Of a DNA stretch of 64,000 nucleotides, positions 26,446 through 53,454 are shown piece by piece. The notes beneath the pieces were generated by a model, which did no database searches, was not told where the DNA came from, and worked only from the letters and a program-made list of their open reading frames with translations. How positions within the stretch are numbered: the first letter of the stretch is position 1; every line of letters begins with the position of its first letter. Source of the DNA: Halioglobus sp. (GTDB lineage: Bacteria > Pseudomonadota > Gammaproteobacteria > Pseudomonadales > Halieaceae); assembly GCA_013214285.1 (NCBI GenBank), contig JABSPW010000001.1:16945-80944 (forward strand). Direction: 5' to 3'. Made by a program: the position numbers and the translations under genes.

Positions 26446-26673
26446 ATTACTTTAGCCGTTTTGCCTGGATAGAGAATAACATTGCATACGGGGCTCTTTT
26501 GGCACTTACCACAGACGGGAATAGTTTACTTTTCTCCAGAAATAACTTGATAGAATTTTGTGAGCGCCATAGCATTCTTTGAAAGTATATCTTGCCCGGC
26601 GCGTCTTGAGAGGAAATGTCGCTTCAAAAGGGTCAGGGGTTACGTGTTAAGGACTAACAAGGGGGAAACGGTC

Positions 26674-28623
26674 ATGAAAAAGATCGTATTGCAATACATC
26701 ACCGAACGCTTTCAGAAAAATAAGAATGCTCAAGGTGACAAAAGACACCCAAAAATGCGCACACTGCTACCCGGATTGGCGCTGCTGCTGTCGTGTCATC
26801 TTGTTTTACCGTCGGCGGCATCCGCAGCCAACTACTACGTCCACGCGAGCAAGGGCTCAAATTCCAGCAGCGGTAAAGCACCTGACGCCGCCTTCCGCGA
26901 TCTTAGCTATGCGATTAGGAGGCTGCGCGCCGGCGACACACTCTTTGTGCGTGCCGGTACCTACCGAGAAAAGATGTCCAGCTTGTCTGCCAGCGGCACA
27001 CGAAGCGCCCCCATCGTGGTGAAGGCTTATGGCAACGAGAAACCGATTATTCGGACTAGCAACATTACGGTGCTTGCCAATGCGAACTGGTGGGTTTTCG
27101 AGGGACTCACGTTTCAGACGTCCGAGCAAATACGGCTGGGGGAACGGACTAGGCTCTCGTGCCACAGCTGGGCAAACAATATCACGTTTAGGAGAAATAC
27201 CTTTCAAAATAGCAGTGCTAACGCACTTGTCCTGAACTGCGCGCGCCAGATCAATATAGACAGCAACGTGTTCTTTAACATTCGCAGTCGTCAAATCTCT
27301 AAGGACGCATACGGCGTCAAGTCAACTGTTGCGGCACACAATATAGTAATCAGCAACAACCGATTCACCGATATTGGTGGTGATGGCATTCAGCTGGTAG
27401 GCGATGTAAGGAATGTTCAAATTATCGATAATGAGTTTGAAGTGGTGCATCCCTACCGCTATCGAACTGAAAACGGAAACGTGGATTCGTCGAATCCTAA
27501 ACGCTTTGGCAGCGTGGGCGAGAATGCCATCGACCTTAAGGGCGGGCCTGGGCCTTTCACTATCGCAGGCAATGTCATCCATGGTTTTCGCCCCACTATC
27601 AAGGGGACGCAGGATGCATCAGGCGCGATGGGCGTGGGTATCACAATGAGCCACGCAAATGATCGATCGGTCTATATCTACAAGAACCATTTCTACGATA
27701 ACGTCTATGACATTAAAATTAACGGGCATGAGACCAGAAGTGAAATTGCCTACAATATTTTCGAGAATTCGGTGGTCGCTGACCCCACGGTTTATGGGAA
27801 AAAGACGCAGACGCCCAGGGCATTACACCTGGAGAACACTGGCAACTCCCGGGTCTATAACAACATATTTCACAATGATGTAGCGGGTGACAAGATACTA
27901 CTGTTCATCGACGGCGTGCGGAACGTGTTGTTGCAAAACAACGTATTTAGCAACGGTAGAATGGGAGGAAAAGGGGGGCAGTTCTCCAGTGACCACAATG
28001 CCTTCTCTGGCATCACCGATAAGATGGATGACAACTTCAACGGCGTGCGCGATGTCACAGGTAATCTGCGCATGAATTGGTCAACCTGGAAGCCGAGGAG
28101 TAATAGTCCGCTGATCGACGCTGGAATGCGCGTACAAAACAGCCTACAAACTGATTACTATGCGGTATCCGACTTTTTCGGGGCACCCATCAGGGGCTTA
28201 GGTCCAGATATTGGCGCCACAGAGTTTGGCGGCACCACCACAACAGCAGCTGAGCCGGAGCCCCCTCAAGCGGCGCTCGTCACCGGCCCAACCTTATCTG
28301 AACCGCCACCGCCTTCTGTTAACTCAGGCTCTAATCAGTCATTCGTATCGATTCTTGGGCTGTCTAAAGGTGATACGGTGTACGGCCAGGTCACGTTTTC
28401 AGTAGACGCACAGGACCCCAGTGGGATTGAGAGGGTAGGCATAAAAGTACAGGATCTGGAGGAAAAGGGCAGAAATAAACGGTTCTATATTGACGACAAC
28501 TGGCCCTATGAATTCACCATAGATTTTTCCCCATACGAGGGTAAGGATGTAAAGTTGGTGGCATACGGTTTCAGTAAAGATGGGTCTAAAAGGAAGACAC
28601 CCATAGTACTCAGTGTGAAGTAA
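26674..28623 (+). CDS. Secreted right-handed parallel beta-helix protein with PT-rich linker and C-terminal Ig-like domain (polysaccharide lyase, hydrolase or epimerase candidate)
   Basis: The signal peptide is MRTLLPGLALLLSCHLVLPSAASA. The alternative start at 26755 matches copy 2 better, while the ATG at 26674 has a GGGGG RBS-like run. The N-terminus is DUF1565-like (NYYVHASKGSNSSSGKAPDAAFRDLSYAIRRLRAGDTLFVRAGTY). Beta-helix rungs repeat (ITFRRNTFQNS, IDSNVFFNI, VISNNRFTDI, IYKNHFYDN, RVYNNIFHND, LLQNNVFSNG). Confidence 0.8.
   Translation: MKKIVLQYITERFQKNKNAQGDKRHPKMRTLLPGLALLLSCHLVLPSAASAANYYVHASKGSNSSSGKAPDAAFRDLSYAIRRLRAGDTLFVRAGTYREKMSSLSASGTRSAPIVVKAYGNEKPIIRTSNITVLANANWWVFEGLTFQTSEQIRLGERTRLSCHSWANNITFRRNTFQNSSANALVLNCARQINIDSNVFFNIRSRQISKDAYGVKSTVAAHNIVISNNRFTDIGGDGIQLVGDVRNVQIIDNEFEVVHPYRYRTENGNVDSSNPKRFGSVGENAIDLKGGPGPFTIAGNVIHGFRPTIKGTQDASGAMGVGITMSHANDRSVYIYKNHFYDNVYDIKINGHETRSEIAYNIFENSVVADPTVYGKKTQTPRALHLENTGNSRVYNNIFHNDVAGDKILLFIDGVRNVLLQNNVFSNGRMGGKGGQFSSDHNAFSGITDKMDDNFNGVRDVTGNLRMNWSTWKPRSNSPLIDAGMRVQNSLQTDYYAVSDFFGAPIRGLGPDIGATEFGGTTTTAAEPEPPQAALVTGPTLSEPPPPSVNSGSNQSFVSILGLSKGDTVYGQVTFSVDAQDPSGIERVGIKVQDLEEKGRNKRFYIDDNWPYEFTIDFSPYEGKDVKLVAYGFSKDGSKRKTPIVLSVK
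26765..28234 (+). repeat. Direct repeat copy 1 (1,470 bp), identical to 41578..43047 wherever compared
   Basis: The offset is 14,813 bp. All nested six-frame ORF translations are identical between copies, and spot-checked lines match base for base. Boundaries were read from the first and last mismatching bases. Confidence 0.95.
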
Positions 28624-32714: not shown

Positions 32715-34106
32715 TTATCGTTCTGCCAAACCATACTTTTCTATCAAGCCGCCTTGTTTTTCACCAGAAGACGGATGTACCGTCATGGGTCTATCCGACG
32801 CTTTGAAAAGCTGATCTATCAACCCACACGCAATTGCCGCGTAAATATACAGCCTCTTTTCGGTGCCATTCCCCTCGACCAGCATTCTTATTAGCTGGCC
32901 TGATATTATTAAAACAAAAAACTGCGCGTTGCGCGAAAAATCAGCCGATGGATATTTCAATCTGCCCATTGCATACGGCAGTAAAGTGATGATTGGATAA
33001 AGCCAGATTAAAACAAAAGGCAGGTAGCCGACAATTCCCAAGTTCTTGAGAATGTTCAGATGGGTGGTATGACTTCCAATTCGCAGATGCCCTGCTAGCG
33101 TCTCCCCTGACACAAATCTTGAACCATCGCGAATCAAGCCGAATTCATAGGTTTTTCCATAGCCGGTACCTATCACCGGGTTCTCGATGATCTCTTCGAA
33201 CATCGGAAGAAAGTACTTATAGCGAGCGGGAGATGTTTGCTCGAGAGAGCCCAGCTTTGTTAGGCGCTTAAGATTGCCCGGCGGCGCCATTTCATGAATA
33301 ACCTGAACAAATACAACCATCAATATCATCGTCGAAACCATGAACCCAGTAAGTAAAAATCTTCTGTTCAAGAACATCCAAATCGCTATACACACTAGTG
33401 TTGAAAGAAGACCTACACGACCACCCCCAAGAACAATGCATAATCCAAAGTAGCCAACTAGAGTTTTTCTAAACCTATAACCACGTCCAGAGTTGCTGAG
33501 TGTTAAAATAAATCCAAGCTGAGCGAACACCTCGAGAAAAGGCATTCTCGTGCTGCCGGCACTAACACCACTGCCCCCAAGCTTATTTACCGACCACGCA
33601 TGCGTATCCAAGCCTGGCAAGCTCAAGCCTGTGAATAACATAAAGAGTCCAAGTAATGTCACGCCGAGGGCTATATAGAAAAGAATATCAAGGGCCTGAG
33701 CGATCGGTATTTTGCTTTTATGTAGCCAATACAACGCTGTCAAAAAAGTAAAAAGGCTGCAGAGAAATCGCCAATAGTGTTTTAGTCCACCGTCAGACCC
33801 TCCAACTAGACTACTCGCCATAACGGGATTACGAACATATGAAATCAAAACTACGAACATGAAAAGCGCGATAAACAAAAAATGCAGGTTGCCTTTCGTT
33901 GGCAGAAAGTTGCTGAGGTTTTTGGTAAGAACCGCATTTACAACGCTATAACCAAATATTAAAGGAATTAGGATATCCGCCAGCTGTAATTTAGCTACAC
34001 CCAAAGCTTTACCTGAAAAAGGGATGAAAGCCAAAATCATCACGATTACGAGAGGCGCTATAGACCGCAATCCTCTAAATCTAACCCGCTCTTGCTCTTT
34101 AATCAC
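32715..34106 (-). CDS. O-antigen ligase/polymerase-like polytopic membrane protein (Wzy_C type)
   Basis: The 463-aa protein has about 10-12 TM helices and a large loop region. This is typical of Wzy-type or exosortase-associated O-glycosylation-ligase-type proteins. No sequence-specific motif was verified. Confidence 0.65.
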   Translation of the reverse strand: MIKEQERVRFRGLRSIAPLVIVMILAFIPFSGKALGVAKLQLADILIPLIFGYSVVNAVLTKNLSNFLPTKGNLHFLFIALFMFVVLISYVRNPVMASSLVGGSDGGLKHYWRFLCSLFTFLTALYWLHKSKIPIAQALDILFYIALGVTLLGLFMLFTGLSLPGLDTHAWSVNKLGGSGVSAGSTRMPFLEVFAQLGFILTLSNSGRGYRFRKTLVGYFGLCIVLGGGRVGLLSTLVCIAIWMFLNRRFLLTGFMVSTMILMVVFVQVIHEMAPPGNLKRLTKLGSLEQTSPARYKYFLPMFEEIIENPVIGTGYGKTYEFGLIRDGSRFVSGETLAGHLRIGSHTTHLNILKNLGIVGYLPFVLIWLYPIITLLPYAMGRLKYPSADFSRNAQFFVLIISGQLIRMLVEGNGTEKRLYIYAAIACGLIDQLFKASDRPMTVHPSSGEKQGGLIEKYGLAER

Positions 34107-34185: not shown

Positions 34186-36138
34186 CTAGTCCCCAAAATC
34201 CACCGACCACCGATACTCAAACGAGTCTCTCTTTGCACTTGGAATTTCAAGCACCAACTGAGACGCTTGTTCAAGAACACCATAACGAGGAGAATACGGG
34301 ACCTGTCTTAGTTCAGCACTCTCCCAGCCCTGTAGGCGCAGACGGCGCTTCGAACCATATCTCCGAAAAGTCCAACGTCCTTCAAATTGCACTGCAGGGT
34401 GAAGATTAAGAAACCAGACAACATTCTCTCCTGACAGACCGCTTATTACGTCATGTACTAACAAACGTCCTATTTCTTTGCTGATTTCCAATTTCCGCAT
34501 GATACAAATGATACGGTTATCTTTTTTTACTTTTATGCGACCTGCCACAGCGAGTGGTGAGGACTCAAACATTTCTCCTCGCGCGTGGTTGTCACTGTGA
34601 AAAGACCCTAATATGCGCATCTGCTCCGCATCTCCGACGAGAATCACATTGTGTGCAGCTCCGAGACGCATGGCGTCAGAAATTGATTTCTCATGGTAAC
34701 TGTATGTACCACGATCCACGAACCAGGAAAGCCCATCAACACACACGTTAATGCTGAGTAGATCGCAATGTGCGTGCGGCGCATACCCTGGTATTCTCGG
34801 AAAATCCATCGGACCAGACCGGAAATAGACTGAATAACGGCCATTATCGTCATGAACTCTGGACATCCAGTGCCCGCTCTTGGTGAGACTAGAGCACGTT
34901 TGAGCCATATCATCCCACTCACTAGCGTCTACCCCATACTCTGTGGAAAAATCAGAGGTAGAACACAAAGCCTTAAACATACTGAGACAGACCTCTATTG
35001 AATCCGGGCTCGCCTCATAAGTTGGCACGAGGACATGGCCATTATCCTCATCACCCACAATCACTATTCTGTCTTTATCGTACCTGAACACAGTAAGCGA
35101 TTTCAGATAGCAACTGATATAGACATCAAGACCTTCCGAGCCATCAACAATCAAACGAACTAATATGAGCGCCTCTAAAACGAAGCGGAGATAACTCGAC
35201 GCCTGTTCAACGTGCATACCATCGGAATGAGTTTGTCTATTGAGCTCGTCTAGCAACGACTTAATTAGTCCGTGTTTGCGATAGCGTACACCAGCGGCTT
35301 TCAAAAAATCAGGAAACAGCTCGAAAAATACAATTAAGGCACTCAGCTCTACTATAGTATGGTTATTCTTAAGTTCCGTATCACTGCCCTGATCGTCAAT
35401 ATCCACAGAAAGATTTTCGCAAAGAAACCGCATTTGCTGATACATACTGACTAATATTTTATCCTCATCATCAGCTTCAATGCTTCCCTCCTCAAGAAAC
35501 GCTAAGCTCAAACTCCACGATACCAATCGCAAACCAATTTCCATCGAGCTTATCCAATTTAAAGAGCAAAACACCGGATTCTTTTCGATCCAAGAAAGAA
35601 TATGTTTAACAATACAGCGGGCATATTCCTTGTTGGATGTGATGCGACTTGCAATTGATAGCCCTAGTAGGTGCTGCTGACGATTTAGCTCCCAGGTAAA
35701 TCGGAAATCACCATGCTTACCAGACGTATTCCTAAGCAGTCGACGATATCGAGTGTAGAAAATATTTGGCCATGTACCTTCACCAGTTATATCAACGTTC
35801 CAATCAAGACCTTCACCAAGCTCTATGGCTCTGTCATAGACGACTACCGATCCGCAAATAAGTGAATCAGAATATTTCATAAACTGGTTCCGGCGTTCAC
35901 TATCGTTAGCTATTAGAGTCGAAACATCTTTAAGATATTCCGAAAATGTTGATGTATTCAGCCGCTTACGCGCTTTTAAAACTAAACCATGGGACAAATC
36001 CTTCGGCCCGAGATCAAGCGGAGTAACCTTCCTGTAATCAGCACTTTTGCAACGCAAATATGTTTGTAGCTGCTGGGTCATCCTAGTCGTCCGGCGCATT
36101 ACTCCACGATATAGCCCCAAAGGTGTTAGCAAAGCCAT
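34186..36138 (-). CDS. Heparinase II/III-family protein, no signal peptide
   Basis: Motifs are NNHTIVELSAL and GYAPHAHCDLLSINV, paralogous to the NNHLIGELTGL and AAHGHADALS motifs of 51478..53454. The N-terminus MALLTPLGLYRGVMRRTTRM is not signal-like. Confidence 0.7.
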   Translation of the reverse strand: MALLTPLGLYRGVMRRTTRMTQQLQTYLRCKSADYRKVTPLDLGPKDLSHGLVLKARKRLNTSTFSEYLKDVSTLIANDSERRNQFMKYSDSLICGSVVVYDRAIELGEGLDWNVDITGEGTWPNIFYTRYRRLLRNTSGKHGDFRFTWELNRQQHLLGLSIASRITSNKEYARCIVKHILSWIEKNPVFCSLNWISSMEIGLRLVSWSLSLAFLEEGSIEADDEDKILVSMYQQMRFLCENLSVDIDDQGSDTELKNNHTIVELSALIVFFELFPDFLKAAGVRYRKHGLIKSLLDELNRQTHSDGMHVEQASSYLRFVLEALILVRLIVDGSEGLDVYISCYLKSLTVFRYDKDRIVIVGDEDNGHVLVPTYEASPDSIEVCLSMFKALCSTSDFSTEYGVDASEWDDMAQTCSSLTKSGHWMSRVHDDNGRYSVYFRSGPMDFPRIPGYAPHAHCDLLSINVCVDGLSWFVDRGTYSYHEKSISDAMRLGAAHNVILVGDAEQMRILGSFHSDNHARGEMFESSPLAVAGRIKVKKDNRIICIMRKLEISKEIGRLLVHDVISGLSGENVVWFLNLHPAVQFEGRWTFRRYGSKRRLRLQGWESAELRQVPYSPRYGVLEQASQLVLEIPSAKRDSFEYRWSVDFGD

Positions 36139-36143
36139 CTCAA

Positions 36144-37439
36144 TTACACCACGCTGCGAAAAACCGACTCGAGCTTCCTCGTAAGATACTTACGGTCAAA
36201 CTCTTTAAGACCACTAATATCATTCAGCGACATTGAACCAGCCTGCCAATGCTTGAAGCACTTCAATATACATTGATAAATCGCCTCTTCATTGTCAGGC
36301 TCTACTACTTGCCCTAGTCCGTATTTCTGTACAAGATGGGCCGCAGCACTATGCTTGCTATCAAGCAACAGCATGCTATTCCGACTGCCCCAATATTCAT
36401 AAAGTTTTCCCGGCACGAGCGATGGCATGTCATAATTGATTACCACGGGCAGGTGAGCCTTAACGAGAGTCTCTACGAAACGCTCACGTTGCATGTAATC
36501 GACTCGCCTGACGACACCACCTAGCTCAAGCCTTTCCACAAGCTGCGCTTGCGCAGATGGCATCCTGCCTAAAATTAGAAACTCTATCTGCGTTGCGGCA
36601 TTCGGTATATCTGAAATTATTCGCCTTAAAGCCCGGAAGAGGTGTGACAAATCCCTACGATCAGAAAATATGCCCGCGTGAATCAACGTGAACTTATCAA
36701 ATTTTTCCGGTGGATTTTCCCAGTATTCTTCATACTCGCTGACATCGCATCCATTCGGGATCATTTCAAATTTCTCTGCAAATTCAGGATACTTTTTCTT
36801 ATACCGATCTAGACTATAGGGTGTCACAGTAATTATCTTTTCAGCATTTTTTATACATTTATACTCCATGCGAGATTCAATCAGGTCTCTATACCGCTGT
36901 AATCCTCGGTTCCTTAATGGGTGTATCCAATCGTCTTTAATGTCGATCACGAGAGGAAGACCCGTTTCTTTTTTTATAGCCACTGCGGATAGCAATACGG
37001 AATAGGGAGGTGCTGTGGCATAAATAATCGAGTACTTGTGCTGTGAGTGCTCCCTTCGTGCTGCCTGACGTAAATTACGCCTCCAAAGAACTTTGTCATC
37101 TGGAATCATTAAGTACTTCCTCAATGGCAAAAGTACAGCAAGCTTCATTTTTCGAAGCAACTTGGACGCTTTCCCATATTCACTGGCGATACCTTTAGGT
37201 TCTCCCGTATCTGTCCTTACTAGCTTAATGTCTTGAGGCACTTGGGCCACGCTGTCCTGTGATTCCTTCGTTACCCACAGCAAGTCAATATCTGATTTGA
37301 CTGTTAGGACCGTCGGCTCCCAACCATTGCTTTCTCTATTTAGAAACGTAAGGAACTTAAGCAATCGAATTGACCCACCTACAGAGCCAAACGGAGGAAA
37401 CGTATGCACCAGCACGAGAACCCTATTACCTATTTCCAC
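36144..37439 (-). CDS. Glycosyltransferase (GT-B, group 1-like)
   Basis: The N-terminus is RVLVLVHTFPPFGSVGGS. The C-terminal region LVPGKLYEYWGS is E-x7-E-like. Confidence 0.7.
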   Translation of the reverse strand: MEIGNRVLVLVHTFPPFGSVGGSIRLLKFLTFLNRESNGWEPTVLTVKSDIDLLWVTKESQDSVAQVPQDIKLVRTDTGEPKGIASEYGKASKLLRKMKLAVLLPLRKYLMIPDDKVLWRRNLRQAARREHSQHKYSIIYATAPPYSVLLSAVAIKKETGLPLVIDIKDDWIHPLRNRGLQRYRDLIESRMEYKCIKNAEKIITVTPYSLDRYKKKYPEFAEKFEMIPNGCDVSEYEEYWENPPEKFDKFTLIHAGIFSDRRDLSHLFRALRRIISDIPNAATQIEFLILGRMPSAQAQLVERLELGGVVRRVDYMQRERFVETLVKAHLPVVINYDMPSLVPGKLYEYWGSRNSMLLLDSKHSAAAHLVQKYGLGQVVEPDNEEAIYQCILKCFKHWQAGSMSLNDISGLKEFDRKYLTRKLESVFRSVV

Positions 37440-37554: not shown

Positions 37555-38475
37555 TCAGAAAGGTTTTGCATTAAGCGGAATACCATCTGTTTGGTCATAG
37601 TAGTGGTGTAGATTAAACGTCTGCAAAACTAATTCTATTTCTTCTTGCTGTTGATTACTCAAAGACGTCTTCCATCGATTGACATAGTCCTCTTTTGGCT
37701 TATCAATGTTCTCTAATGCCAGCTCTCTCGATATTCTTCCGGCATGTTCAGATTTGCCAATACTCATTAGTATTTTTTTAATTTCAGTATATGGCTGGGT
37801 AATAAGATTCTCGTAATGAACAAATATGAAATTTTCTCTATCGGAATTTTTTAGCAACATAAGATTATCCAAGCTCCAGCTGACAGCTAGACGAAATGCC
37901 TTACTCCCTCCGATCCGGTAAAACTTCGCCTGCTCAGCCGTCAGTAGCGGCTCAATATCTGAATAGCTATGGCTATGGTCCGGCACAGGCCAATCTGACT
38001 TGATGCGAGATGCAATACACGCATTGGGGTTACGCATAAGGACAATGAATGGGCATTGATGCAACATGTCAGACAAATAGTCTAGGTAGTGGTTGCCGCG
38101 GACAATTTTTACGATTCGGCCATCATAAAATAGCCTGGAGCCTGTGTTTGTATATTTCGAACCTATGAACCCTTCAGAAAAGCTAGCCAGGATTGCCTGC
38201 TGGTAGATGGTGTTTTTCTCGATGGTAGTGCGGGATTCTCTCGGATTGAAGAAGCTCATTTCTCGAGACGAAGATGGATTTAGCGGTTCATGTATTGGCC
38301 GGGCTCTAAGAACATTTGAAAGTAATCTCCCTAAGAAGGTTGTACCGCTTCGCGTGTAGCCCGCCAAAACCGCCCATGGCAGAGGATGACTCCCGGTTTC
38401 TATGAAATACCCCCCCCAATTGAGCCGTCTAACTACTTTACGGTAGGTATTTATTGCTACTAAATGAGCGTTCAT
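37555..38475 (-). CDS. PAPS-dependent sulfotransferase (ST3)
   Basis: The 5'-PSB loop is LAGYTRSGTTFLGRLL and the 3'-PB motif is IVLMRNPNACIASRI. The start overlaps the ST4 stop (ATGA). Confidence 0.75.
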   Translation of the reverse strand: MNAHLVAINTYRKVVRRLNWGGYFIETGSHPLPWAVLAGYTRSGTTFLGRLLSNVLRARPIHEPLNPSSSREMSFFNPRESRTTIEKNTIYQQAILASFSEGFIGSKYTNTGSRLFYDGRIVKIVRGNHYLDYLSDMLHQCPFIVLMRNPNACIASRIKSDWPVPDHSHSYSDIEPLLTAEQAKFYRIGGSKAFRLAVSWSLDNLMLLKNSDRENFIFVHYENLITQPYTEIKKILMSIGKSEHAGRISRELALENIDKPKEDYVNRWKTSLSNQQQEEIELVLQTFNLHHYYDQTDGIPLNAKPF

Positions 38476-39248
38476 CTATCGTCATCCGACAATAAGTACT
38501 CAAATTCCGAACCACGGAGTTCGCGCTCTACTTCTTCATAGTTGCTAATCAAACTAGCAATAGTTTTGTTCGTAAGTTTGCTAAATGGCGAAGTGAGCTC
38601 GCCATTGCATTTTACATCTATGAAATCTAGAACACGCTTTTGCTCACGAATAGGGTCTTCAAGCAGTGATTCATAAGCCACACGAAGATACGGTTGGTTT
38701 TCGAATTTCGTCGCCCAAATTGCGTCTAGGTTTTTGAGCCTAGCCAATTTGTGTTGTAGCGATTTAACGGGGACTACCACTGGCTGCCTATCAAGGGCTT
38801 TAACGGAGCGATAAATGCCAGTGGACTCCGACGCCATTCTGGATATGATAACTCTCAGATAGTTATTTCGTGTGTTGTGTATTATCGACAATTTATGACT
38901 CCGCATATAGCTCAACGCAGAAGGGTATAGCCACGGAATATATCGGGCTTGACTATACATGTATTTGAAACCGATAGCCTGACCCTCATTGTGTGAATAG
39001 AAATTGTCCAAGAACTCTCTAACGAGGCCGCCGCGCGCGATACCATGCCTGATTTTTCTATTTGTAGTCTCCGAAGCATATTTACGAATGGCATGTTCAC
39101 TACCAGATCTCGGGAAGAAGATTTCACCAGCACAGAGAATATCACTGTGACTATTCAGCGACGTTATCAACATTGTAGATCCCGTCCTCTGCGTCGAGAC
39201 AACCACAAACCTAGACATAGCGAACGCTCCGATAAATCCCGCGGCCAA
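38472..39248 (-). CDS. PAPS-dependent sulfotransferase, NodH/Stf0-like (ST4)
   Basis: The 5'-PSB loop is VVVSTQRTGSTMLITSL and the 3'-PB-like motif is IIHNTRNNYLRVIISRM. Confidence 0.75.
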   Translation of the reverse strand: MAAGFIGAFAMSRFVVVSTQRTGSTMLITSLNSHSDILCAGEIFFPRSGSEHAIRKYASETTNRKIRHGIARGGLVREFLDNFYSHNEGQAIGFKYMYSQARYIPWLYPSALSYMRSHKLSIIHNTRNNYLRVIISRMASESTGIYRSVKALDRQPVVVPVKSLQHKLARLKNLDAIWATKFENQPYLRVAYESLLEDPIREQKRVLDFIDVKCNGELTSPFSKLTNKTIASLISNYEEVERELRGSEFEYLLSDDDR

Positions 39249-39276: not shown

Positions 39277-40584
39277 TTAGGCAGCATCTCCTCTTGCTTT
39301 TAAAAACGGCTTGATCTCAGCAATAAAATCAAAGTAGGAACGTAGTGGTATCTCATTGTTCCAAACAACAACTACTAACACGATAGAAGAAGAGACAATG
39401 TATGCTACGCTTGCGCCGATTCCTGCGCCCAAGATACCGTACGCTGGTATCAGGAATACATCTAAAATAATCATGACTACTACTGCGCAGAAAATAGATA
39501 GGCTGTAGGTCCATGCTCGTCCCTGCATTATCAAATTGGGTGTGAGGGTCTTGGATATACTGATAGCTAATACTCCTGGAAGAAGAACGATAACCACTGG
39601 CCATGCATCCAAAAACTCTTCGCCAAATAAAACGAGAATGATCCACTTTGTGAGGAAAAAAATCGGCATCATGCACGCAGCCGTAAATGCAAATATTAGG
39701 CTGTTTAGTCTAGCTGTTAGGGTCGCTGATCGTCTGTCACCCTCCTTCGCAAGACGTGATAGCAAGACTTTATTCGCAACATTTGGAATTCTCCACAGGA
39801 CTTCACCTAATGTGAGTGCAATGCTGTATATGCCTACCTCTCTCGGCGTCAGAAAGTAAGCCACCAAGAAAATATCAAAGCGATACTCGAGGTAAGTTAA
39901 GAGCTGGCCTAAATGCGTTTTTAAGCCAAACAGCGTCATTGGCTTAAGTAATGCTTTATCAACTTTAAAAAGTCGAAAGCCACTTCGATATACCATTACA
40001 ATCGAAACGATTAACATCCCGGCGATACCAAGGAACGCGCACTTGACGGCATTTTCCAGAGTGACCGTTCCTAACAATACGACCGTCGAGAGTGAGATAC
40101 ACAATATGGCTGGTCTTGATAGCCGAACGAGGACTGATCGTGGGATGTCATAATCAGCATTTAGCATTGATCGCATATTGAGCGCAAATAGGTACATCGG
40201 GATCATGGACAGCGTAATGAAGATAAGCTTCCATGGTATTTCTTGATACATTCGATCATAAAACAGCGCAACGCCAATAGTAGCAATCAGCGCGGCAATT
40301 GGACCACTCACAATCGCAATAAGAATTGCGTTGCTCGTTAACTCATCGAAAGATGTTTTTTTCCTAAAATACGCCCCACTGAACTCTACTTTTAAAGCGA
40401 ACATAGATATCGCCATCATTATAGTAGAATTTAGTAAGGTGAAATTTCCTTTGTTATCCGGTCCCAGCGCTCTGGCTAAAATGACGCTCGTGACCATCGT
40501 CAACCCGAGTACAACAAAGTTGCCGCCCAGGCTGATTCCGAAGAACTTTACGAATTTTCTCTGTGTTAATTTCCTTATCATCAT
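39277..40584 (-). CDS. wzx: Wzx-type polysaccharide flippase (MOP superfamily)
   Basis: The 435-aa protein is polytopic with about 12-14 TM helices. The N-terminus is MMIRKLTQRKFVKFFGISLGGNFVVLGLTMV, typical of polysaccharide biosynthesis/export flippases. Confidence 0.8.
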   Translation of the reverse strand: MMIRKLTQRKFVKFFGISLGGNFVVLGLTMVTSVILARALGPDNKGNFTLLNSTIMMAISMFALKVEFSGAYFRKKTSFDELTSNAILIAIVSGPIAALIATIGVALFYDRMYQEIPWKLIFITLSMIPMYLFALNMRSMLNADYDIPRSVLVRLSRPAILCISLSTVVLLGTVTLENAVKCAFLGIAGMLIVSIVMVYRSGFRLFKVDKALLKPMTLFGLKTHLGQLLTYLEYRFDIFLVAYFLTPREVGIYSIALTLGEVLWRIPNVANKVLLSRLAKEGDRRSATLTARLNSLIFAFTAACMMPIFFLTKWIILVLFGEEFLDAWPVVIVLLPGVLAISISKTLTPNLIMQGRAWTYSLSIFCAVVVMIILDVFLIPAYGILGAGIGASVAYIVSSSIVLVVVVWNNEIPLRSYFDFIAEIKPFLKARGDAA

Positions 40585-41561: not shown

Positions 41562-43085
41562 ATGACGATAAGTAAATTGCTACCCGGATTGGCGCTGCTG
41601 CTGTCGTGTCATCTTGTTTTACCGTCGGCGGCATCCGCAGCCAACTACTACGTCCACGCGAGCAAGGGCTCAAATTCCAGCAGCGGTAAAGCACCTGACG
41701 CCGCCTTCCGCGATCTTAGCTATGCGATTAGGAGGCTGCGCGCCGGCGACACACTCTTTGTGCGTGCCGGTACCTACCGAGAAAAGATGTCCAGCTTGTC
41801 TGCCAGCGGCACACGAAGCGCCCCCATCGTGGTGAAGGCTTATGGCAACGAGAAACCGATTATTCGGACTAGCAACATTACGGTGCTTGCCAATGCGAAC
41901 TGGTGGGTTTTCGAGGGACTCACGTTTCAGACGTCCGAGCAAATACGGCTGGGGGAACGGACTAGGCTCTCGTGCCACAGCTGGGCAAACAATATCACGT
42001 TTAGGAGAAATACCTTTCAAAATAGCAGTGCTAACGCACTTGTCCTGAACTGCGCGCGCCAGATCAATATAGACAGCAACGTGTTCTTTAACATTCGCAG
42101 TCGTCAAATCTCTAAGGACGCATACGGCGTCAAGTCAACTGTTGCGGCACACAATATAGTAATCAGCAACAACCGATTCACCGATATTGGTGGTGATGGC
42201 ATTCAGCTGGTAGGCGATGTAAGGAATGTTCAAATTATCGATAATGAGTTTGAAGTGGTGCATCCCTACCGCTATCGAACTGAAAACGGAAACGTGGATT
42301 CGTCGAATCCTAAACGCTTTGGCAGCGTGGGCGAGAATGCCATCGACCTTAAGGGCGGGCCTGGGCCTTTCACTATCGCAGGCAATGTCATCCATGGTTT
42401 TCGCCCCACTATCAAGGGGACGCAGGATGCATCAGGCGCGATGGGCGTGGGTATCACAATGAGCCACGCAAATGATCGATCGGTCTATATCTACAAGAAC
42501 CATTTCTACGATAACGTCTATGACATTAAAATTAACGGGCATGAGACCAGAAGTGAAATTGCCTACAATATTTTCGAGAATTCGGTGGTCGCTGACCCCA
42601 CGGTTTATGGGAAAAAGACGCAGACGCCCAGGGCATTACACCTGGAGAACACTGGCAACTCCCGGGTCTATAACAACATATTTCACAATGATGTAGCGGG
42701 TGACAAGATACTACTGTTCATCGACGGCGTGCGGAACGTGTTGTTGCAAAACAACGTATTTAGCAACGGTAGAATGGGAGGAAAAGGGGGGCAGTTCTCC
42801 AGTGACCACAATGCCTTCTCTGGCATCACCGATAAGATGGATGACAACTTCAACGGCGTGCGCGATGTCACAGGTAATCTGCGCATGAATTGGTCAACCT
42901 GGAAGCCGAGGAGTAATAGTCCGCTGATCGACGCTGGAATGCGCGTACAAAACAGCCTACAAACTGATTACTATGCGGTATCCGACTTTTTCGGGGCACC
43001 CATCAGGGGCTTAGGTCCAGATATTGGCGCCACAGAGTTTGGCGGCAAACCGCTGCAGGGAGCGCCGCCTCCTGGCTGTCTCTAA
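41562..43085 (+). CDS. Secreted right-handed parallel beta-helix protein, copy 2 (lacks linker and Ig-like domain)
   Basis: The protein is identical to copy 1 from LLPGLALLLSC to GATEFGG. It has its own start MTISK and then diverges to KPLQGAPPPGCL-stop. Confidence 0.75.
   Translation: MTISKLLPGLALLLSCHLVLPSAASAANYYVHASKGSNSSSGKAPDAAFRDLSYAIRRLRAGDTLFVRAGTYREKMSSLSASGTRSAPIVVKAYGNEKPIIRTSNITVLANANWWVFEGLTFQTSEQIRLGERTRLSCHSWANNITFRRNTFQNSSANALVLNCARQINIDSNVFFNIRSRQISKDAYGVKSTVAAHNIVISNNRFTDIGGDGIQLVGDVRNVQIIDNEFEVVHPYRYRTENGNVDSSNPKRFGSVGENAIDLKGGPGPFTIAGNVIHGFRPTIKGTQDASGAMGVGITMSHANDRSVYIYKNHFYDNVYDIKINGHETRSEIAYNIFENSVVADPTVYGKKTQTPRALHLENTGNSRVYNNIFHNDVAGDKILLFIDGVRNVLLQNNVFSNGRMGGKGGQFSSDHNAFSGITDKMDDNFNGVRDVTGNLRMNWSTWKPRSNSPLIDAGMRVQNSLQTDYYAVSDFFGAPIRGLGPDIGATEFGGKPLQGAPPPGCL
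41578..43047 (+). repeat. Direct repeat copy 2 (1,470 bp), identical to 26765..28234 wherever compared
   Basis: Same evidence as copy 1. Confidence 0.95.
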
Positions 43086-43766: not shown

Positions 43767-45080
43767 GTGAATATCAGTATATTTGGTATGGGATACGTAG
43801 GCGTTGTATCCGCTACCTGTCTCGCCAGTGATGGCCACCGTGTCATCGGCGTAGATCCGAATAGGGCAAAGATCACCCTGATCAATGCTGGTGAAGCACC
43901 TATCGTTGAGCAGGGTCTTGGACCCCTGCTGTCCGCAGGTGTGGACTCTGGCCTAATTTCAGCTCGCTCTGATGCAGCATCTGCAGTCCTGGAGACTGAC
44001 ATCTCTTTCATTTGTGTAGGTACCCCCAGCCAGAGTAACGGCAGCCTAGATCTTCGATATGTTAAGAATGTCTGCCAGGAAATCGGCGACGCAGTTGGTC
44101 AAAAAGATAGCTTTCACGTCGTCGTCGTCCGCAGCACTATGCTCCCTGGCAGTATGCTAGATACCGTGATTCCCACGTTGGAAAAAAGTTCGGGTAAGAT
44201 GGCGGGGGAAGGTTTCGGAATTTGCATCAATCCGGAATTCCTCCGGGAAGGAACCGCGATTAATGACTACAAGAACCCGCCCAAGACCGTTATTGGCGAA
44301 GTAGACGCTCGCAGTGGCGACATTTTGGAGGAATTGTACGGCACCCTCGCTGCCCCCCTAGTTCGTACCGATATATCTACCGCGGAGATGGTGAAATACA
44401 CCGATAATGTCTGGCATGCTCTAAAGGTTAGTTTTGCCAATGATATCGGCAACCTTTGCAAGCTAATCGACATTGACGGGCATGAGGTTATGGATATTTT
44501 TTGTCAGGACCACAAGCTCAACTTGTCTACGGCTTACCTAAAACCCGGCTTCGCGTTTGGTGGTTCCTGTTTGCCGAAGGACGTCAGGGCGCTAAGTCAC
44601 AAAGCAAAATCTCTCGATCTCGACATGCCGATCATAGACAACATTCTCGAAGCCAACGAGAGACAGGTTGAACGCGGCCTCTCCATGATCTTAGCAAAAG
44701 CCAACAAGAGGGTGTCCGTGCTTGGATTTAGTTTCAAGGCAGGCACTGACGATCTTCGCGAGAGTCCGCTAGTCGAAGTAATCGAGCGCTTAATAGGCAA
44801 AGGTTATGATCTGCGCCTCTATGACAAAAATGTTTCGATGGCAAGCCTAGTTGGCGCCAACAAGGACTATATTCTCAATGTCATTCCACACATCTCCCAA
44901 CTTATGGTAGAGACCTTGGACGAGGCACTCGCTCATGGCGAAACTATTGTTATCGGTAACGGTGCCGAAGAGTTTGAGACCATACCTTCCAGGACGAAAG
45001 ATAATCAGGTCATCGTAGACCTTGTAAGGATCGGCGATTATCGCAGTATCGAGGGACGATACGATGGAATCTGCTGGTAG
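43767..45080 (+). CDS. algD: GDP-mannose 6-dehydrogenase (AlgD-like)
   Basis: The 437-aa protein aligns by eye along its full length with P. aeruginosa AlgD as I recall it. Shared features are MNISIFGMGYVGVVSATCLA, FICVGTPS, GFAFGGSCLPKDVRAL, SFKAGTDDLRESPLVE and the terminal GICW. The start is GTG. Confidence 0.85.
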   Translation: MNISIFGMGYVGVVSATCLASDGHRVIGVDPNRAKITLINAGEAPIVEQGLGPLLSAGVDSGLISARSDAASAVLETDISFICVGTPSQSNGSLDLRYVKNVCQEIGDAVGQKDSFHVVVVRSTMLPGSMLDTVIPTLEKSSGKMAGEGFGICINPEFLREGTAINDYKNPPKTVIGEVDARSGDILEELYGTLAAPLVRTDISTAEMVKYTDNVWHALKVSFANDIGNLCKLIDIDGHEVMDIFCQDHKLNLSTAYLKPGFAFGGSCLPKDVRALSHKAKSLDLDMPIIDNILEANERQVERGLSMILAKANKRVSVLGFSFKAGTDDLRESPLVEVIERLIGKGYDLRLYDKNVSMASLVGANKDYILNVIPHISQLMVETLDEALAHGETIVIGNGAEEFETIPSRTKDNQVIVDLVRIGDYRSIEGRYDGICW

Positions 45081-49602: not shown

Positions 49603-51477
49603 ATGTGTGGTATTTTTGGCGTACTGAACGGATCGAATGACACCTTTATCTCGCAAGCAGATGTAGAGGAAGCTATCGGTTTGCTGTCCCACCGAGGACC
49701 AGACGATGGAGGCATAGAAGAACTATTTAGTGGAAAAGGCCACAAAGGTTTCCTGGGGCACCGGCGGCTATCCATCATTGACCTGGAAGGGGGAAAACAG
49801 CCCATGGTCGATGCGCATGCCGGACACGTTTTGACTTACAACGGCGAAATTTACAATTACAAGAGCTTACGGAAGCAGCTTCAGAGTGAAGGATACATAT
49901 TCAAGGAACGCTCTGATACTGAGGTAATCCTGAAAGCTTACCAACGATGGGGAAGGCAGTGTGTTGAGCACCTACGCGGTATGTTTGCTTTTGCAATATG
50001 GGATAGCGCCAAGGGTGAATTGTTTCTCGCCCGAGATCATTTTGGGAAAAAGCCGCTTTTCTATGTGCAACAGGGTCATTCTCTCTATTTTTCCTCCGAG
50101 ATAAAGGCTCTTCTTTCGCTACCGACGCTGTCGTTTTCAATGGATTACGACAATATTAAAAATTACCTCATTTACCGCTACATACCCGGACCCGATACAC
50201 TTATTCGAGAAATAAAGAAACTACCTCCCGGCGCAACACTTGTGTGGAAAGACGGTCGGTTTGACCTCACACCCTACTTCGTTCCGGCAGAAGCAACTGC
50301 AATACAGTCTAATATAAGTGAGCGTGATGCAGTCAACGACTTCTGGCTAAAACTTGATGAGGCTGTTGAACTTAGGATGCAGGCAGATGTTCCCTTCGGC
50401 GCTTTTCTGTCAGGTGGTATAGATTCATCGGCTATAGTGGCGCTAATGAGTCGACACAATCACCAGCGGGTAAGAACATTTTCTGTAGGTTTCAAAGAGG
50501 CGGAATATAGTGAACTGTCTTATGCGAAAGTAATAGCTGATTTTTTTTCCACTGAACACAATGAACTTTTGGTGTCACATAAAGACCTGATCGAACTACT
50601 ACCCAAGCTTATCCGCTACCGCGATGCTCCTGTGTCAGAGCCTTCGGATATCGCTATTTATATGCTGTCGATGGAAGCGAGCCGTACAGTAAAAATGGTA
50701 CTGACCGGAGAAGGTAGCGATGAAATACTAGCCGGATATCCTAAGCATGCGTATGAGCGTTACGGGCAGCTTTACCGAAAACTACCTGGCCTTCTGCGTC
50801 GAGACGTCATTGAACCGCTTGTCTACAAACTGCCCTACAGGTTCCGTCGAGCGAAGACGGCAATTCGAAATTTCGGCATAGACCGCTACGATGAGAGAAT
50901 GCCTGGCTGGTTCGGTGCAGTGGACAAATCTCAGGCGTCAAAACTGTTACGACTGAATGGTCAGAATGATTTGCCTCATATTGCGCCGTCCAGAGCTGGC
51001 GGCTCGTTGCGAGATATTCTCCTCTTTGATCAGAAAAGCTGGTTACCCGACAATCTGCTGGAAAGGGGTGATCGAGTAACAATGGCTGCATCTATAGAAG
51101 CTCGCATGCCCTTCATGGACATTCAACTTGCCGCTTTTGCAGCTACCTTACCCGATAAATATCGTGTCCGTAACCTCAGTACCAAGTGGGTACTAAGACA
51201 GGCGATGCAAGGCATCCTACCTCAAAATATATTAGACAGACCAAAGGTCGGATTTAGAATACCAGTCAACGAGTGGTTTAGAACAAGCATGAAAGCACAA
51301 CTTATGGACAACCTTCTTAGCGCAGATTCCCTATCAAACCAGTTTTATGATTCCAATATCCTCAATAAACTGGTTAATGAACACGTGCGAGGACGACAGA
51401 ATCACGAAAAGTTACTATGGACGTTGCTTAATCTCGAAATTTGGATGCGAGAATATCGCAGTAGGATAGCTTTTTGA
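49603..51477 (+). CDS. Asparagine synthase (glutamine-hydrolysing)-family amidotransferase, EPS-locus type
   Basis: The N-terminal nucleophile is MCGIFG. The PP-loop is FLSGGIDSSAIVALM. Confidence 0.9.
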   Translation: MCGIFGVLNGSNDTFISQADVEEAIGLLSHRGPDDGGIEELFSGKGHKGFLGHRRLSIIDLEGGKQPMVDAHAGHVLTYNGEIYNYKSLRKQLQSEGYIFKERSDTEVILKAYQRWGRQCVEHLRGMFAFAIWDSAKGELFLARDHFGKKPLFYVQQGHSLYFSSEIKALLSLPTLSFSMDYDNIKNYLIYRYIPGPDTLIREIKKLPPGATLVWKDGRFDLTPYFVPAEATAIQSNISERDAVNDFWLKLDEAVELRMQADVPFGAFLSGGIDSSAIVALMSRHNHQRVRTFSVGFKEAEYSELSYAKVIADFFSTEHNELLVSHKDLIELLPKLIRYRDAPVSEPSDIAIYMLSMEASRTVKMVLTGEGSDEILAGYPKHAYERYGQLYRKLPGLLRRDVIEPLVYKLPYRFRRAKTAIRNFGIDRYDERMPGWFGAVDKSQASKLLRLNGQNDLPHIAPSRAGGSLRDILLFDQKSWLPDNLLERGDRVTMAASIEARMPFMDIQLAAFAATLPDKYRVRNLSTKWVLRQAMQGILPQNILDRPKVGFRIPVNEWFRTSMKAQLMDNLLSADSLSNQFYDSNILNKLVNEHVRGRQNHEKLLWTLLNLEIWMREYRSRIAF

Positions 51478-53454
51478 ATGAATGCAAGATGGATCATCAA
51501 TCGATTAAAAGCGATGACTATCGCGGAGGTCTTGCATCGTGGTTCCCGTCTATTTACTTTGTACGCGGAAAAGTGGGCTGTCATGATGGGCTGGGAACCA
51601 AACGCACGGCATAGCGAGCCCGGACATTCAGACGCTTTATTCCCCTGTTCCATCGACGAGACTATGATAAGCTCAGATTTGGAATCTTTGTCTGAGTCAT
51701 TACGATCTGGACACGTTGACCTATTCGACTATCAGCATTTGCAGACGGGCAACCCTGTCCAGTGGCATGTTGACCCCCTCACATTGACGCAGATCGATAG
51801 TAAGGCTTTCGGTAAAACGCTGAACTATCGTGATTCTAGGCAAGTTGGCGATGTAAAGGTGATCTGGGAGCTGGGCAGACACCAGTTCCTGGTGCCTATA
51901 GCAATTGAGTTCCTAGTGGAAAAGGATGATGAACACCTTGACGTGATTGCAAATGTGCTGTCATCTTGGCTTGATCAAAATCCATATGGAAAGGGAATAC
52001 ACTGGTGCAGCTCACTTGAGGTGGCCCTTAGAGGCATAAGTTGGGCTGTGACCCACCAGATTTTGCGGGCTGCTGGCTTAGAGCATGGACTCTTTTCGCT
52101 CAAGCTGGACAACATAACCCTGAAAAAAAGCCTGTATCAACACGCGTGGTTTACACGGCATTACCTTTCCCAGTTTAGTTCAGCAAACAATCATTTGATT
52201 GGCGAACTGACGGGACTTCTGGTACTTACCACGGTATTCCCTTTCGGGAATGAAACTAACAAATGGCGTGTGTTTGCTTGGCAGAAAATACAGCGCCAAG
52301 CACTGGACCAGGTTTGGCCCGATGGGGTGAACAAAGAGCAAGCTATTTATTATCACAGCTGGGTGCTAGAGTATTTTATTATCGCATATACTACCGCCAC
52401 CCGTTCGGGCATCAGCGTTCCCAGAAGCTTTGTTGATGTAATCTACGCCATGGCAGATTTTCTTGCCACGTTGTGCCCTTCCTTCGATGGGCGCGACTTG
52501 CCTCAGGTAGGTGACGCAGACGACGGTGTTGCATTGCGCTTCAGTGAAGCAAAAAAAACTAACTACTATACAGACCTGATTGCATCGGCCGCGCACATTG
52601 CAGGTCTAACTGCCTGCCCTAGCCAGTCTACTAAAGCATTGTGGTACGCCAGTTTGGGCGCAGTACGATCAGAGCACAAGGCCGCCTCACTATTCGCTCG
52701 CCAGTATCCAAAGATTTTCACAGAGGGCGGCTACGCCGTTCTGGGATCGGAAAACCTTCATTTACTATTCGACGCGGGGCCTATTGGATATCCCTCGATA
52801 GCAGCACATGGGCATGCAGATGCATTGAGTTTTTGTCTAGCGATTGACAAGGAATGGTGGTTAGTGGACCCGGGGACGTACGCCTATCATGCGGAAGAAC
52901 AGTGGAGAAACTACTTTCGCGGCACTGCGGCTCACAATACCGTATTAATCAATAATGAGAACCAGTCACAAATCGGCGGGGCATTTCTATGGCTTGACAG
53001 GGCAGAGGTTGATTTCGAAGGGCTGGTGGAGACAGCGGATCCGTGTGAACAAAGTTGTAGTGGGTCTGTCAGAAAATATTTTCGTTCACCGGATGTAGCT
53101 GTGACCCGGACCGTTCGTATTAATCCAAAAGCGTCGACGATCTTTCTGGCGGATCAGATTACCTGTTCCTGTCCCACGGACGTGTCGCTCTGTTTCCACT
53201 TCGCGCCCCACATCAATGTAGAAGTCTACGACGAGAACCGCTGCAAGGCGAGTATAGCAGGGGGCTCCAAAGCCATGCACCTGACGTTCTCCAGCACGTG
53301 CTCTCTGGCTACATACTGCGGCAGTGAGAATCCCATCTGGGGATGGTACTCGGGCTCACTTGGCAAGAAAGAGCCCTGTATCACGTTGGTTGCCAGTACT
53401 CGGCTATACGACAGCACTAAACTGAACACAAAGATTGATATTCTGGCAATATGA
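51478..53454 (+). CDS. Heparinase II/III-family protein, no signal peptide
   Basis: The ATG immediately follows the amidotransferase TGA. Motifs are NNHLIGELTGL and SIAAHGHADALSFCL. The N-terminus MNARWIINRLKAMTIAEVLHRG is not signal-like. Confidence 0.7.
   Translation: MNARWIINRLKAMTIAEVLHRGSRLFTLYAEKWAVMMGWEPNARHSEPGHSDALFPCSIDETMISSDLESLSESLRSGHVDLFDYQHLQTGNPVQWHVDPLTLTQIDSKAFGKTLNYRDSRQVGDVKVIWELGRHQFLVPIAIEFLVEKDDEHLDVIANVLSSWLDQNPYGKGIHWCSSLEVALRGISWAVTHQILRAAGLEHGLFSLKLDNITLKKSLYQHAWFTRHYLSQFSSANNHLIGELTGLLVLTTVFPFGNETNKWRVFAWQKIQRQALDQVWPDGVNKEQAIYYHSWVLEYFIIAYTTATRSGISVPRSFVDVIYAMADFLATLCPSFDGRDLPQVGDADDGVALRFSEAKKTNYYTDLIASAAHIAGLTACPSQSTKALWYASLGAVRSEHKAASLFARQYPKIFTEGGYAVLGSENLHLLFDAGPIGYPSIAAHGHADALSFCLAIDKEWWLVDPGTYAYHAEEQWRNYFRGTAAHNTVLINNENQSQIGGAFLWLDRAEVDFEGLVETADPCEQSCSGSVRKYFRSPDVAVTRTVRINPKASTIFLADQITCSCPTDVSLCFHFAPHINVEVYDENRCKASIAGGSKAMHLTFSSTCSLATYCGSENPIWGWYSGSLGKKEPCITLVASTRLYDSTKLNTKIDILAI

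Follow-up and report, generated by a model that had tools for sequence, protein, structure and literature searches.

The 64,000 bp stretch of Halioglobus sp. examined here (assembly GCA_013214285.1, contig JABSPW010000001.1, positions 16,945 to 80,944; hereafter the window) carries at 34186-36138, on its minus strand, a gene for a 650-aa heparinase II/III-fold protein without a leader, which we refer to as Hep1. An earlier reading of this DNA, here called the original prediction, had taken it for a candidate uronate C5-epimerase rather than a lyase. Judged by its predicted products, the window contains a PEP-CTERM/XrtA-type exopolysaccharide (EPS) locus, with a G+C content of about 44–49% against about 56–58% in the flanks. 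The export and chain genes of this locus encode a Poly_export protein, an outer-membrane beta-barrel and an XrtA-type chain-length determinant. A kinase-like ATPase, a system ATPase, a WecA-like initiating transferase, a PrsT-like TPR protein, a sulfatase, two secreted beta-helix proteins and five sulfotransferases (Pfam) were also detected.

Hep1 is part of a minus-strand cassette with the order Wzx, ST4, ST3, GT4, Hep1, Wzy, deacetylase and ST2, where ST denotes a sulfotransferase and GT a glycosyltransferase. At the head of the cassette is a Wzx-type flippase (39277-40584; Pfam Polysacc_synt/Polysacc_synt_3), followed by two sulfotransferases that are co-conserved with Hep1, namely the Stf0-like ST4 (38472-39248; Pfam Sulfotransfer_3/Sulphotransf) and ST3 (37555-38475; Pfam Sulfotransfer_1/3). 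The GT4 glycosyltransferase directly upstream of Hep1 (36144-37439; Pfam Glyco_transf_4) is orthologous in all full cassettes described below, and the Wzy-like polymerase directly downstream (32715-34106) matched Pfam Wzy_C with 31.8 bits at a cut-off of 31.7.

A divergent plus-strand operon has the order dehydrogenase, GT4, GT4, ST5, GT4, AsnB-like gene and Hep2. The ORF at its head (43767-45080) encodes an AlgD-type GDP-mannose 6-dehydrogenase, which would supply GDP-mannuronate (GDP-ManA). It matched the Pseudomonas aeruginosa enzyme (1mfz) over its full length with an E-value of 4e-162, the best value against UDP-glucose dehydrogenases being 8e-69, in agreement with the original prediction that GDP-mannuronate is made in the locus. 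Only two real nucleoside diphosphate (NDP)-sugar dehydrogenases were found in the genome, and the non-locus copy is on another contig. The operon is closed by Hep2 (51478-53454; 658 aa), a second leaderless heparinase II/III-fold paralogue identified by Pfam, which is abutted by the AsnB-like amidotransferase of XrtA/PEP-CTERM type (49603-51477; TIGR03108 with 9e-151, below the cut-off of that model, and Pfam Asn_synthase with 2.7e-100). Hep1 and Hep2 are the only heparinase-like genes in the genome and are 24% identical to each other (BLASTP 9e-32).

The Hep1 ORF starts with an ATG located 5 nt past the end of the GT4 ORF and its stop codon lies 79 nt ahead of the Wzy_C-type gene, so the tight packing between a glycosyltransferase and a Wzy-like gene was as predicted. 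The gene caller had chosen a later ATG, giving 631 aa; however, M1 is more likely to be the start, since the first 20 residues of Hep1 align in its relatives and R16 is invariant. Both heparinase II/III signatures named in the original prediction were recovered (NNHTIVELSAL at residues 258-268 and APHAHCDLLS at 453-462), together with the Pfam domains Hepar_II_III_N (8e-13, 48.9 bits, gathering cut-off 22) and Hepar_II_III_C (3.3e-19, 69.8 bits, gathering cut-off 24). A test limited to Kyte-Doolittle hydropathy found neither a signal peptide nor a Tat h-region, nor a membrane anchor: the best 12-residue window within the first 45 residues reached 1.03, as expected for a protein said to lack a signal peptide, and no h-region follows the RR at residues 15-16.

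A word-based search with Hep1 gave 17 matches, one of which was the window's own product. The closest relatives were about 45% identical and the close relatives were all metagenomic, with one metagenome-assembled genome among the species representatives (L006). The gene order around them was Wzx, ST4, ST3, GT4, Hep, Wzy in L004; Wzx, ST4, ST3, GT4, Hep, GT4, Wzy in L005; GT4, Hep, GT4 in the partial locus L006; and AsnB, ST, GT4, ST, Hep, GT4, Wzy in L100. In L003, ST4, ST3, Hep and an acyltransferase follow each other, and both the polymerase (Wzy) and the flippase (Wzx) genes are on the strand opposite to Hep. The Wzx-ST-ST-GT4-Hep-(GT4)-Wzy block was found in four to five independent metagenomic loci.

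The cassette partners in L003–L006 matched the window proteins with 260–570 bits each. Scores were 534–566 bits for the GT4 orthologues beside the Hep1 orthologues (L004, L005 and L006) and, in L003, L004 and L005, 319–370 bits for ST3, 264–286 bits for ST4 and 335–416 bits for Wzy; Wzx orthologues were found in L004 and L005. Several gene junctions overlap in the cassettes of this type. Since the partners are orthologous and the junctions overlap, Hep1 is a fixed part of a repeat-unit cassette that has its own flippase and polymerase. The neighbours of Hep1 in the window and in five related loci are glycosyltransferases, sulfotransferases, Wzx and Wzy, and no transporter or catabolic genes were found beside it in the window or the related loci. 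Sulfotransferases are rare around the wider family, and the tie to sulfation is a feature of the Hep1 subfamily alone. A pseudogene or a chance ORF was ruled out for Hep1 by the approximately 45%-identical orthologues in conserved synteny.

Two of the related loci had further heparinase-like genes. L005 carries, in addition to its Hep1 orthologue, a 664-aa protein (L005:3581-5575, plus strand) with DSE-like_N (DUF4962, PF16332) and Hepar_II_III_C, whose gene has a sulfotransferase gene on one side and Wzx on the other; animal dermatan-sulfate epimerases have an N-terminal domain of the DUF4962 type. In L100 (17409-21938), a Hep1-type cassette occurs with a Hep2-type gene that has a dehydrogenase gene after it, and the locus also encodes an exosortase EpsH/EpsI. 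By gene content, the two-paralogue layout of the window thus recurs in PEP-CTERM-type loci.

The AlphaFold2 (AF2) model of Hep1, made with a 15-sequence alignment, had a pLDDT of 83.6 and a pTM of 0.88. It shows a helical (alpha/alpha) toroid to about residue 410, followed by the strands of an antiparallel beta-sandwich to residue 650. The best structural match was heparinase III of polysaccharide lyase (PL) family 12, with Z-scores of 30–32 (31.7 over 516 residues, the whole length) and a Foldseek E-value of about 1e-19. Other matches were the Dp0100 alginate lyase (PL39, Z 26), a PL17 alginate lyase (Z 25), exoHep (PL15, Z 23.6), GAGase II (PL35, Z 23.6), heparinase II (PL21, Z 21) and human dermatan-sulfate epimerase 1 (DS-epi1; 6HZN, 6hzn_A), the epimerase of the fold, with a Z of 20.0 and an rmsd (root-mean-square deviation) of 4.1 over 503 residues, a Foldseek E-value of 3.5e-11 and a TM-score of 0.55. 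A single-sequence search of the PDB with Hep1 was uninformative (best E 0.043), and a feature search of the ESM Atlas returned the same family names only. From the Pfam domains, the model and the intact active site described next, Hep1 is predicted to be a catalytically competent member of the (alpha/alpha)-toroid and beta-sandwich superfamily of uronate lyases and epimerases.

A profile built from the 15-sequence alignment matched HepC, the heparinase III of Pedobacter heparinus, with an E-value of 5e-26. In the profile alignment, with HepC numbering corrected for a 24-residue chain offset, N259/H260, Y316 and H455 of Hep1 align to N240/H241, Y294 and H424 of HepC, whose catalytic residues are Asn240, Tyr294 and His424 (PMC12088678 Table 4). 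Hep1 also has H457, forming an HxH motif (H455-x-H457), and then D475, Y481 and H496, all invariant. The triad of DS-epi1 consists of His205/Tyr261/Tyr473; His450 lies close to it, and His452/Glu470/Asn481 bind Mn (PMC8006597). Compared by sequence spacing and profile alignment rather than by superposed coordinates, Hep1 shares the spacings of DS-epi1: 56 residues from His to Tyr (H260-Y316; His205-Tyr261), the HxH motif (His450-x-His452 in DS-epi1) and an acidic residue at +18 (D475; Glu470).

In an alignment of 164 relatives, the positions of N259/H260, Y316, H455 and HxH...D...H were 98–100% conserved, and likewise R153, W195, R204, E264, E311, D363, R548 and D563. As the catalytic residues are invariant or nearly so in such diverse relatives, the chemistry is under selection, and for the same reason Hep1 is predicted to be an enzyme able to remove the H5 of a uronate. 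A different role, in which Hep1 is a carbohydrate-binding scaffold of the assembly complex or performs another reaction on the unit, keeping lyase-like residues for binding only, is very improbable, because the near-invariance of the whole catalytic set and of HxH...D...H is the pattern of an active enzyme. In its favour, none of the family members has a known activity. For GT4 with residues 96-650 of Hep1, complex prediction gave no verdict either way: the score of 0.00, in two runs without controls, says nothing for or against binding.

H260, Y316, Y481, H455, H457 and D475 are conserved in the relatives, and the same set occurs in lyases. According to the authors of the DS-epi1 structure, heparinase II has kept every catalytic residue of DS-epi1, and minor changes in the active site may turn a lyase into an epimerase (PMC8006597). 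Because the catalytic set is common to both, these residues cannot separate an epimerase from a lyase.

Each of the known enzymes resembles Hep1 in part. Heparinase III (HepC, 4MMH; and BT4657 of Bacteroides thetaiotaomicron, 5JMD/5JMF), its best structural and profile match, has the same toroid and beta-sandwich and the aligned catalytic Asn/Tyr/His. However, its identity to Hep1 is only 13–15%, HepC has Gln in place of H457, and Hep1 differs further in lacking a signal peptide and in lying among biosynthetic instead of catabolic genes. A HepC orthologue was ruled out by the NCBIfam HepC equivalog NF045573 (24.8 bits, cut-off 700). The PL15, PL17 and PL21 enzymes (Atu3025, 3A0O; Alg17c, 4NEI; heparinase II, 2FUQ) have the fold (Z 20–25), the catalytic His/Tyr/His and the HxH with downstream Asp and His, a motif which we take to be a metal site in PL17 and PL21. 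The substrates of PL15 and PL17 include alginate, composed of mannuronate (ManA) and guluronate (GulA). These enzymes are catabolic and about 11–13% identical to Hep1, which lies in a biosynthetic context, and the Alginate_lyase (PF05426) N-domain was not matched by Hep1 in Pfam.

DS-epi1 shares with Hep1 the fold, the His-Tyr spacing, the HxH and the +18 spacing to an acidic residue (a metal ligand in DS-epi1), and is a biosynthetic uronate C5 enzyme that works together with sulfotransferases. On the other hand, there is no detectable sequence similarity between the two; Hep1 has Hepar_II_III_N and did not match the DSE-like_N domain of the DS-epi1 type in Pfam. DS-epi1 is also a lumenal, glycosylated Golgi enzyme that acts on the finished polymer, whereas Hep1 is predicted to be cytoplasmic and belongs to a Wzx/Wzy pathway. 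The chemistry proposed below for Hep1 (ManA to GulA by H5 abstraction and reprotonation) is that of AlgG and AlgE1-7 on a GDP-ManA-derived polymer. Those enzymes are right-handed beta-helices which act in the periplasm or outside the cell on the finished polymer, unlike the toroid and sandwich of Hep1, and it is the beta-helix proteins at 26560-28623 and 41562-43085, not Hep1, that resemble them in the locus.

Further counterparts of Hep1 are uncharacterised proteins of polysaccharide loci annotated as 'heparinase II/III family' or 'alginate lyase family' (e.g. DAETH_RS16925 of Deinococcus aetherius pDAETH-1 and QKZ34664.1 of the Ralstonia solanacearum eps operon), which have the same domains, are leaderless and sit between GT4, AsnB and dehydrogenase genes. 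The family includes both Hep1 and Hep2; the Hep1 subfamily differs from the rest in being small, divergent and tied to sulfotransferases and Wzx/Wzy. An exhaustive profile search returned 22,543 cluster representatives (50% identity level) at E<=1e-3 and 6,748 at E<=1e-30. No N-terminal hydrophobic segment was found by the hydropathy test in any of the 164 relatives. One member, P0051, is a natural 1423-aa GT4-GT4-Hep fusion (L099:1470-7024), whose gene overlaps by 4 bp with the next one, for a UDPG/GDP-mannose-family dehydrogenase. As GT4 enzymes are taken to work on the cytoplasmic face, the fusion places the family in the cytoplasm and ties it to glycosyl transfer. The L099 contig is just 7.2 kb long, and the fusion could be an artefact of assembly or gene calling. 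A periplasmic housekeeping lyase similar to AlgL was ruled out by the leaderless family together with the fusion.

The original prediction had placed Hep1 in the cytoplasm, acting on a lipid-linked unit or nascent chain. Its cytoplasmic and biosynthetic part is borne out by the leaderless family, the GT4-GT4-Hep fusion and the cassette; the lipid-linked substrate is something that we infer.

To describe the surroundings of the wider family, six-frame ORFs of 80 loci from species-representative genomes were searched with the window's own proteins. The loci span Chloroflexota, Acidobacteriota, Gemmatimonadota, Planctomycetota, Omnitrophota, Gammaproteobacteria, Bacillota and others. A gene of the GDP-mannose-dehydrogenase type, 37–67% identical to the window's enzyme, was present in 41 loci, and two had only another dehydrogenase type. 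In 21 of the 80, the dehydrogenase gene came next after the heparinase-like gene in the same orientation, often overlapping it, and in none did it come directly before. An AsnB-like gene was adjacent in 18 of the 80 loci, and sulfotransferases were rare. Sixty of the loci were 15 kb or longer, and 43 of these had GT4 genes. Assuming that a genome of several Mb has at most a single copy of GDP-mannose dehydrogenase, its co-occurrence with Hep would be far above chance; the argument for enrichment is drawn from the strict adjacency of the two genes and from their shared order in different phyla. Judged from these neighbourhoods, it is the Hep2 type that is widespread and goes with the dehydrogenase and AsnB, in contrast to Hep1. 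A module of this kind occurs on pDAETH-1 of the cultured Deinococcus aetherius (L098:7822-14243), with asnB, an 'alginate lyase family protein' of the Hep2 type, a UDPG/GDP-mannose-family dehydrogenase and a GT4; it adjoins a polyprenyl glycosylphosphotransferase and could serve as an experimental system.

The pairing with the dehydrogenase raises another explanation, that the Hep enzyme acts on a nucleotide sugar, converting GDP-D-mannuronate (or another NDP-uronate) to its C5 epimer, e.g. GDP-L-guluronate, or to another C5-derived product, which GT4 would transfer afterwards. A strict and often overlapping order of Hep and then dehydrogenase, seen in the 21 loci and behind the GT4-GT4-Hep fusion, is typical of consecutive steps in sugar-nucleotide pathways. 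We nevertheless consider this improbable: Hep1 adjoins GT4 and Wzy rather than the dehydrogenase, and the 650-aa two-domain architecture is fully retained. To our knowledge, all characterised members of the fold bind oligo- or polysaccharides in a long cleft, and no enzyme of the superfamily is known to us to use an NDP-uronate.

Our preferred reading, given tentatively and with slightly less than even confidence, is that Hep1 is a cytoplasmic C5-epimerase in the assembly of the repeat unit of a Wzx/Wzy-dependent sulfated EPS. A GT4, probably the co-translated one upstream, would put a D-uronate on the undecaprenyl-diphosphate-linked unit at the cytoplasmic face. Hep1 would then bind this uronate, with its carboxylate neutralised by N259/H260, and H5 would be taken either by Y316, with Y481 behind it, or by H455, giving an enolate. 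Reprotonation of the enolate on the opposite face would produce the L-configured C5 epimer, which would mean ManA to GulA if the residue derives from the GDP-ManA made in the locus. Finally, the co-conserved sulfotransferases or the amidotransferase may fix the epimerised product. The step from ManA to GulA, as originally predicted, fits the wider family and Hep2; it fits Hep1's own subfamily less well, given the dehydrogenase of L005 described below.

We prefer epimerisation to elimination for several reasons. A lyase acting on the lipid-linked unit would be futile, as it would undo the work of the neighbouring glycosyltransferase, and the exported beta-helix proteins, with weak similarity to PL6, already fill the niche of a lyase or epimerase at the polymer level. 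Moreover, the animal enzyme with this fold epimerises its substrate in concert with sulfotransferases, and in the synthesis of animal dermatan and heparan sulfate, sulfation comes after epimerisation. The conserved partners, two sulfotransferases for Hep1 and an amidotransferase for Hep2, could likewise make a reversible epimerisation irreversible.

Several observations weigh against this proposal. In the window, the dehydrogenase is not adjacent to Hep1 but 7.6 kb away on the opposite strand, and the dehydrogenase near the L005 orthologue is not of the GDP-mannose type (116 bits to the window's enzyme); because of both, a uronate derived from GDP-ManA can only be a tentative substrate of Hep1. 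By predicted fold and catalytic residues, Hep1 would fit DS-epi1 and the lyases equally. DS-epi1 was 29th by Z and 38th in Foldseek among the structural matches of Hep1, and each of the solved structures closest to it is that of a lyase (PL12 first, followed by PL39, PL17, PL15 and PL35). In the literature searched, epimerase activity has been demonstrated for no bacterial family member. Furthermore, leaderless cytoplasmic lyases of this fold exist, such as the PL15 oligoalginate lyase Atu3025.

These points bear on a second candidate, that Hep1 is a true beta-eliminating lyase retained in a biosynthetic locus and acting on lipid-linked or released oligosaccharides. Such an enzyme might free undecaprenyl phosphate for reuse by removing intermediates that have stalled, might shorten units or leave a 4,5-unsaturated uronate as their cap, or might break down oligomers of the cell's own polymer after re-import. 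The structural ranking (Z 31 for PL12 and 23–26 for PL39, PL17, PL15 and PL35) and the full lyase triad suit it. Lyases and hydrolases are also known in biosynthetic operons, e.g. AlgL in alginate operons, and the cytoplasmic lyases of the fold in PL15 and PL17 are exolytic. Still, we regard it as less likely than epimerisation. The operon-embedded lyases known to us are exported, as opposed to a family with a leader peptide in none of 164 members; the fusion to two GT4 domains and the strict order of Hep and then dehydrogenase across phyla point to synthesis and not to salvage. The lack of transporter or catabolic genes beside Hep1 in the window and related loci and the PL6-like secreted proteins already encoded in the locus argue in the same direction.

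Extending the C5-epimerase proposal for Hep1 to the whole leaderless family is possible, though doubtful. Its members would be bacterial lyase-fold C5-epimerases acting on the cytoplasmic lipid-linked unit, with the reaction pulled by a sulfotransferase (Hep1) or an AsnB-type amidotransferase (Hep2). They would then provide the missing route to L-uronates in Wzx/Wzy polysaccharides, and would be the prokaryotic counterpart of the epimerase and sulfotransferase pair of animals, which may even have evolved from them. The domain family, the fold, the chemistry shared by lyases and C5-epimerases and DS-epi1 as a solved epimerase of the fold are known already. No published functional study of the leaderless biosynthetic family was found in the open full-text literature (subscription journals lay outside the search), which gave only lyase papers and the DS-epi1 structure, nor did it hold a description of the linkage of the family to GDP-mannose dehydrogenase, AsnB, GT fusions or sulfotransferase cassettes.

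Annotations as 'heparinase II/III' or 'alginate lyase' are very common in capsule, O-antigen and EPS loci and are routinely read as degradative. If these proteins are biosynthetic C5-epimerases, this would explain how L-uronates enter Wzy-dependent polymers, correct a widespread annotation and link the animal glycosaminoglycan epimerases to a bacterial biosynthetic family and not to catabolic lyases. It would also provide enzymes for microbial polysaccharides that are both sulfated and epimerised. The gene-order evidence (adjacency of Hep to the dehydrogenase and AsnB, the GT fusion and the sulfotransferase cassette) suggests ManA-containing units and GDP-ManA as candidate substrates.

A looser parallel was seen in the eps operon on the Ralstonia solanacearum megaplasmid (L097:9629-13605), at which a heparinase-like gene lies downstream of wecB and wecC, between a 713-aa ADH/Gfo-Idh-MocA fusion oxidoreductase and a GT4. 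Its product, QKZ34664.1, is a remote Hep relative (hhalign 98.7%, 18% identity), but unlike in Hep1 the HxH histidines do not align. WecB and WecC make UDP-D-ManNAcA, and EPS I reportedly contains 2-acetamido-2-deoxy-L-galacturonic acid. If so, inversions at C3 and C5 would be needed, for which the oxidoreductase and the heparinase-like protein are candidates.

Of the two secreted beta-helix proteins, the one at 41562-43085 (plus strand) is right-handed, with Pfam Beta_helix and Chondroitinase_B, a signal peptide in its translation and weak matches to the PL6 alginate lyases 7o84 and 7o7a. It is an alternative, exported candidate for a lyase or epimerase acting at the polymer level, as far as these matches indicate. 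The second was identified by Pfam at 26560-28623, also on the plus strand. The two genes share an exact direct repeat (26765-28234 and 41578-43047; 1470 of 1470 bases, the identity ending at both borders), which makes up their cores and flanks the low-G+C cassette of Wzx, sulfotransferases, Hep1 and Wzy. Recombination between its copies could allow loss or exchange of the cassette; alternatively, as the genome is in 299 contigs, the repeat may have arisen during assembly. The genome as a whole gave 17 matches to the Sulfotransfer_1 family, three of them clustered on contig C255, and sulfated glycans may, on this count, be a general trait of the organism.

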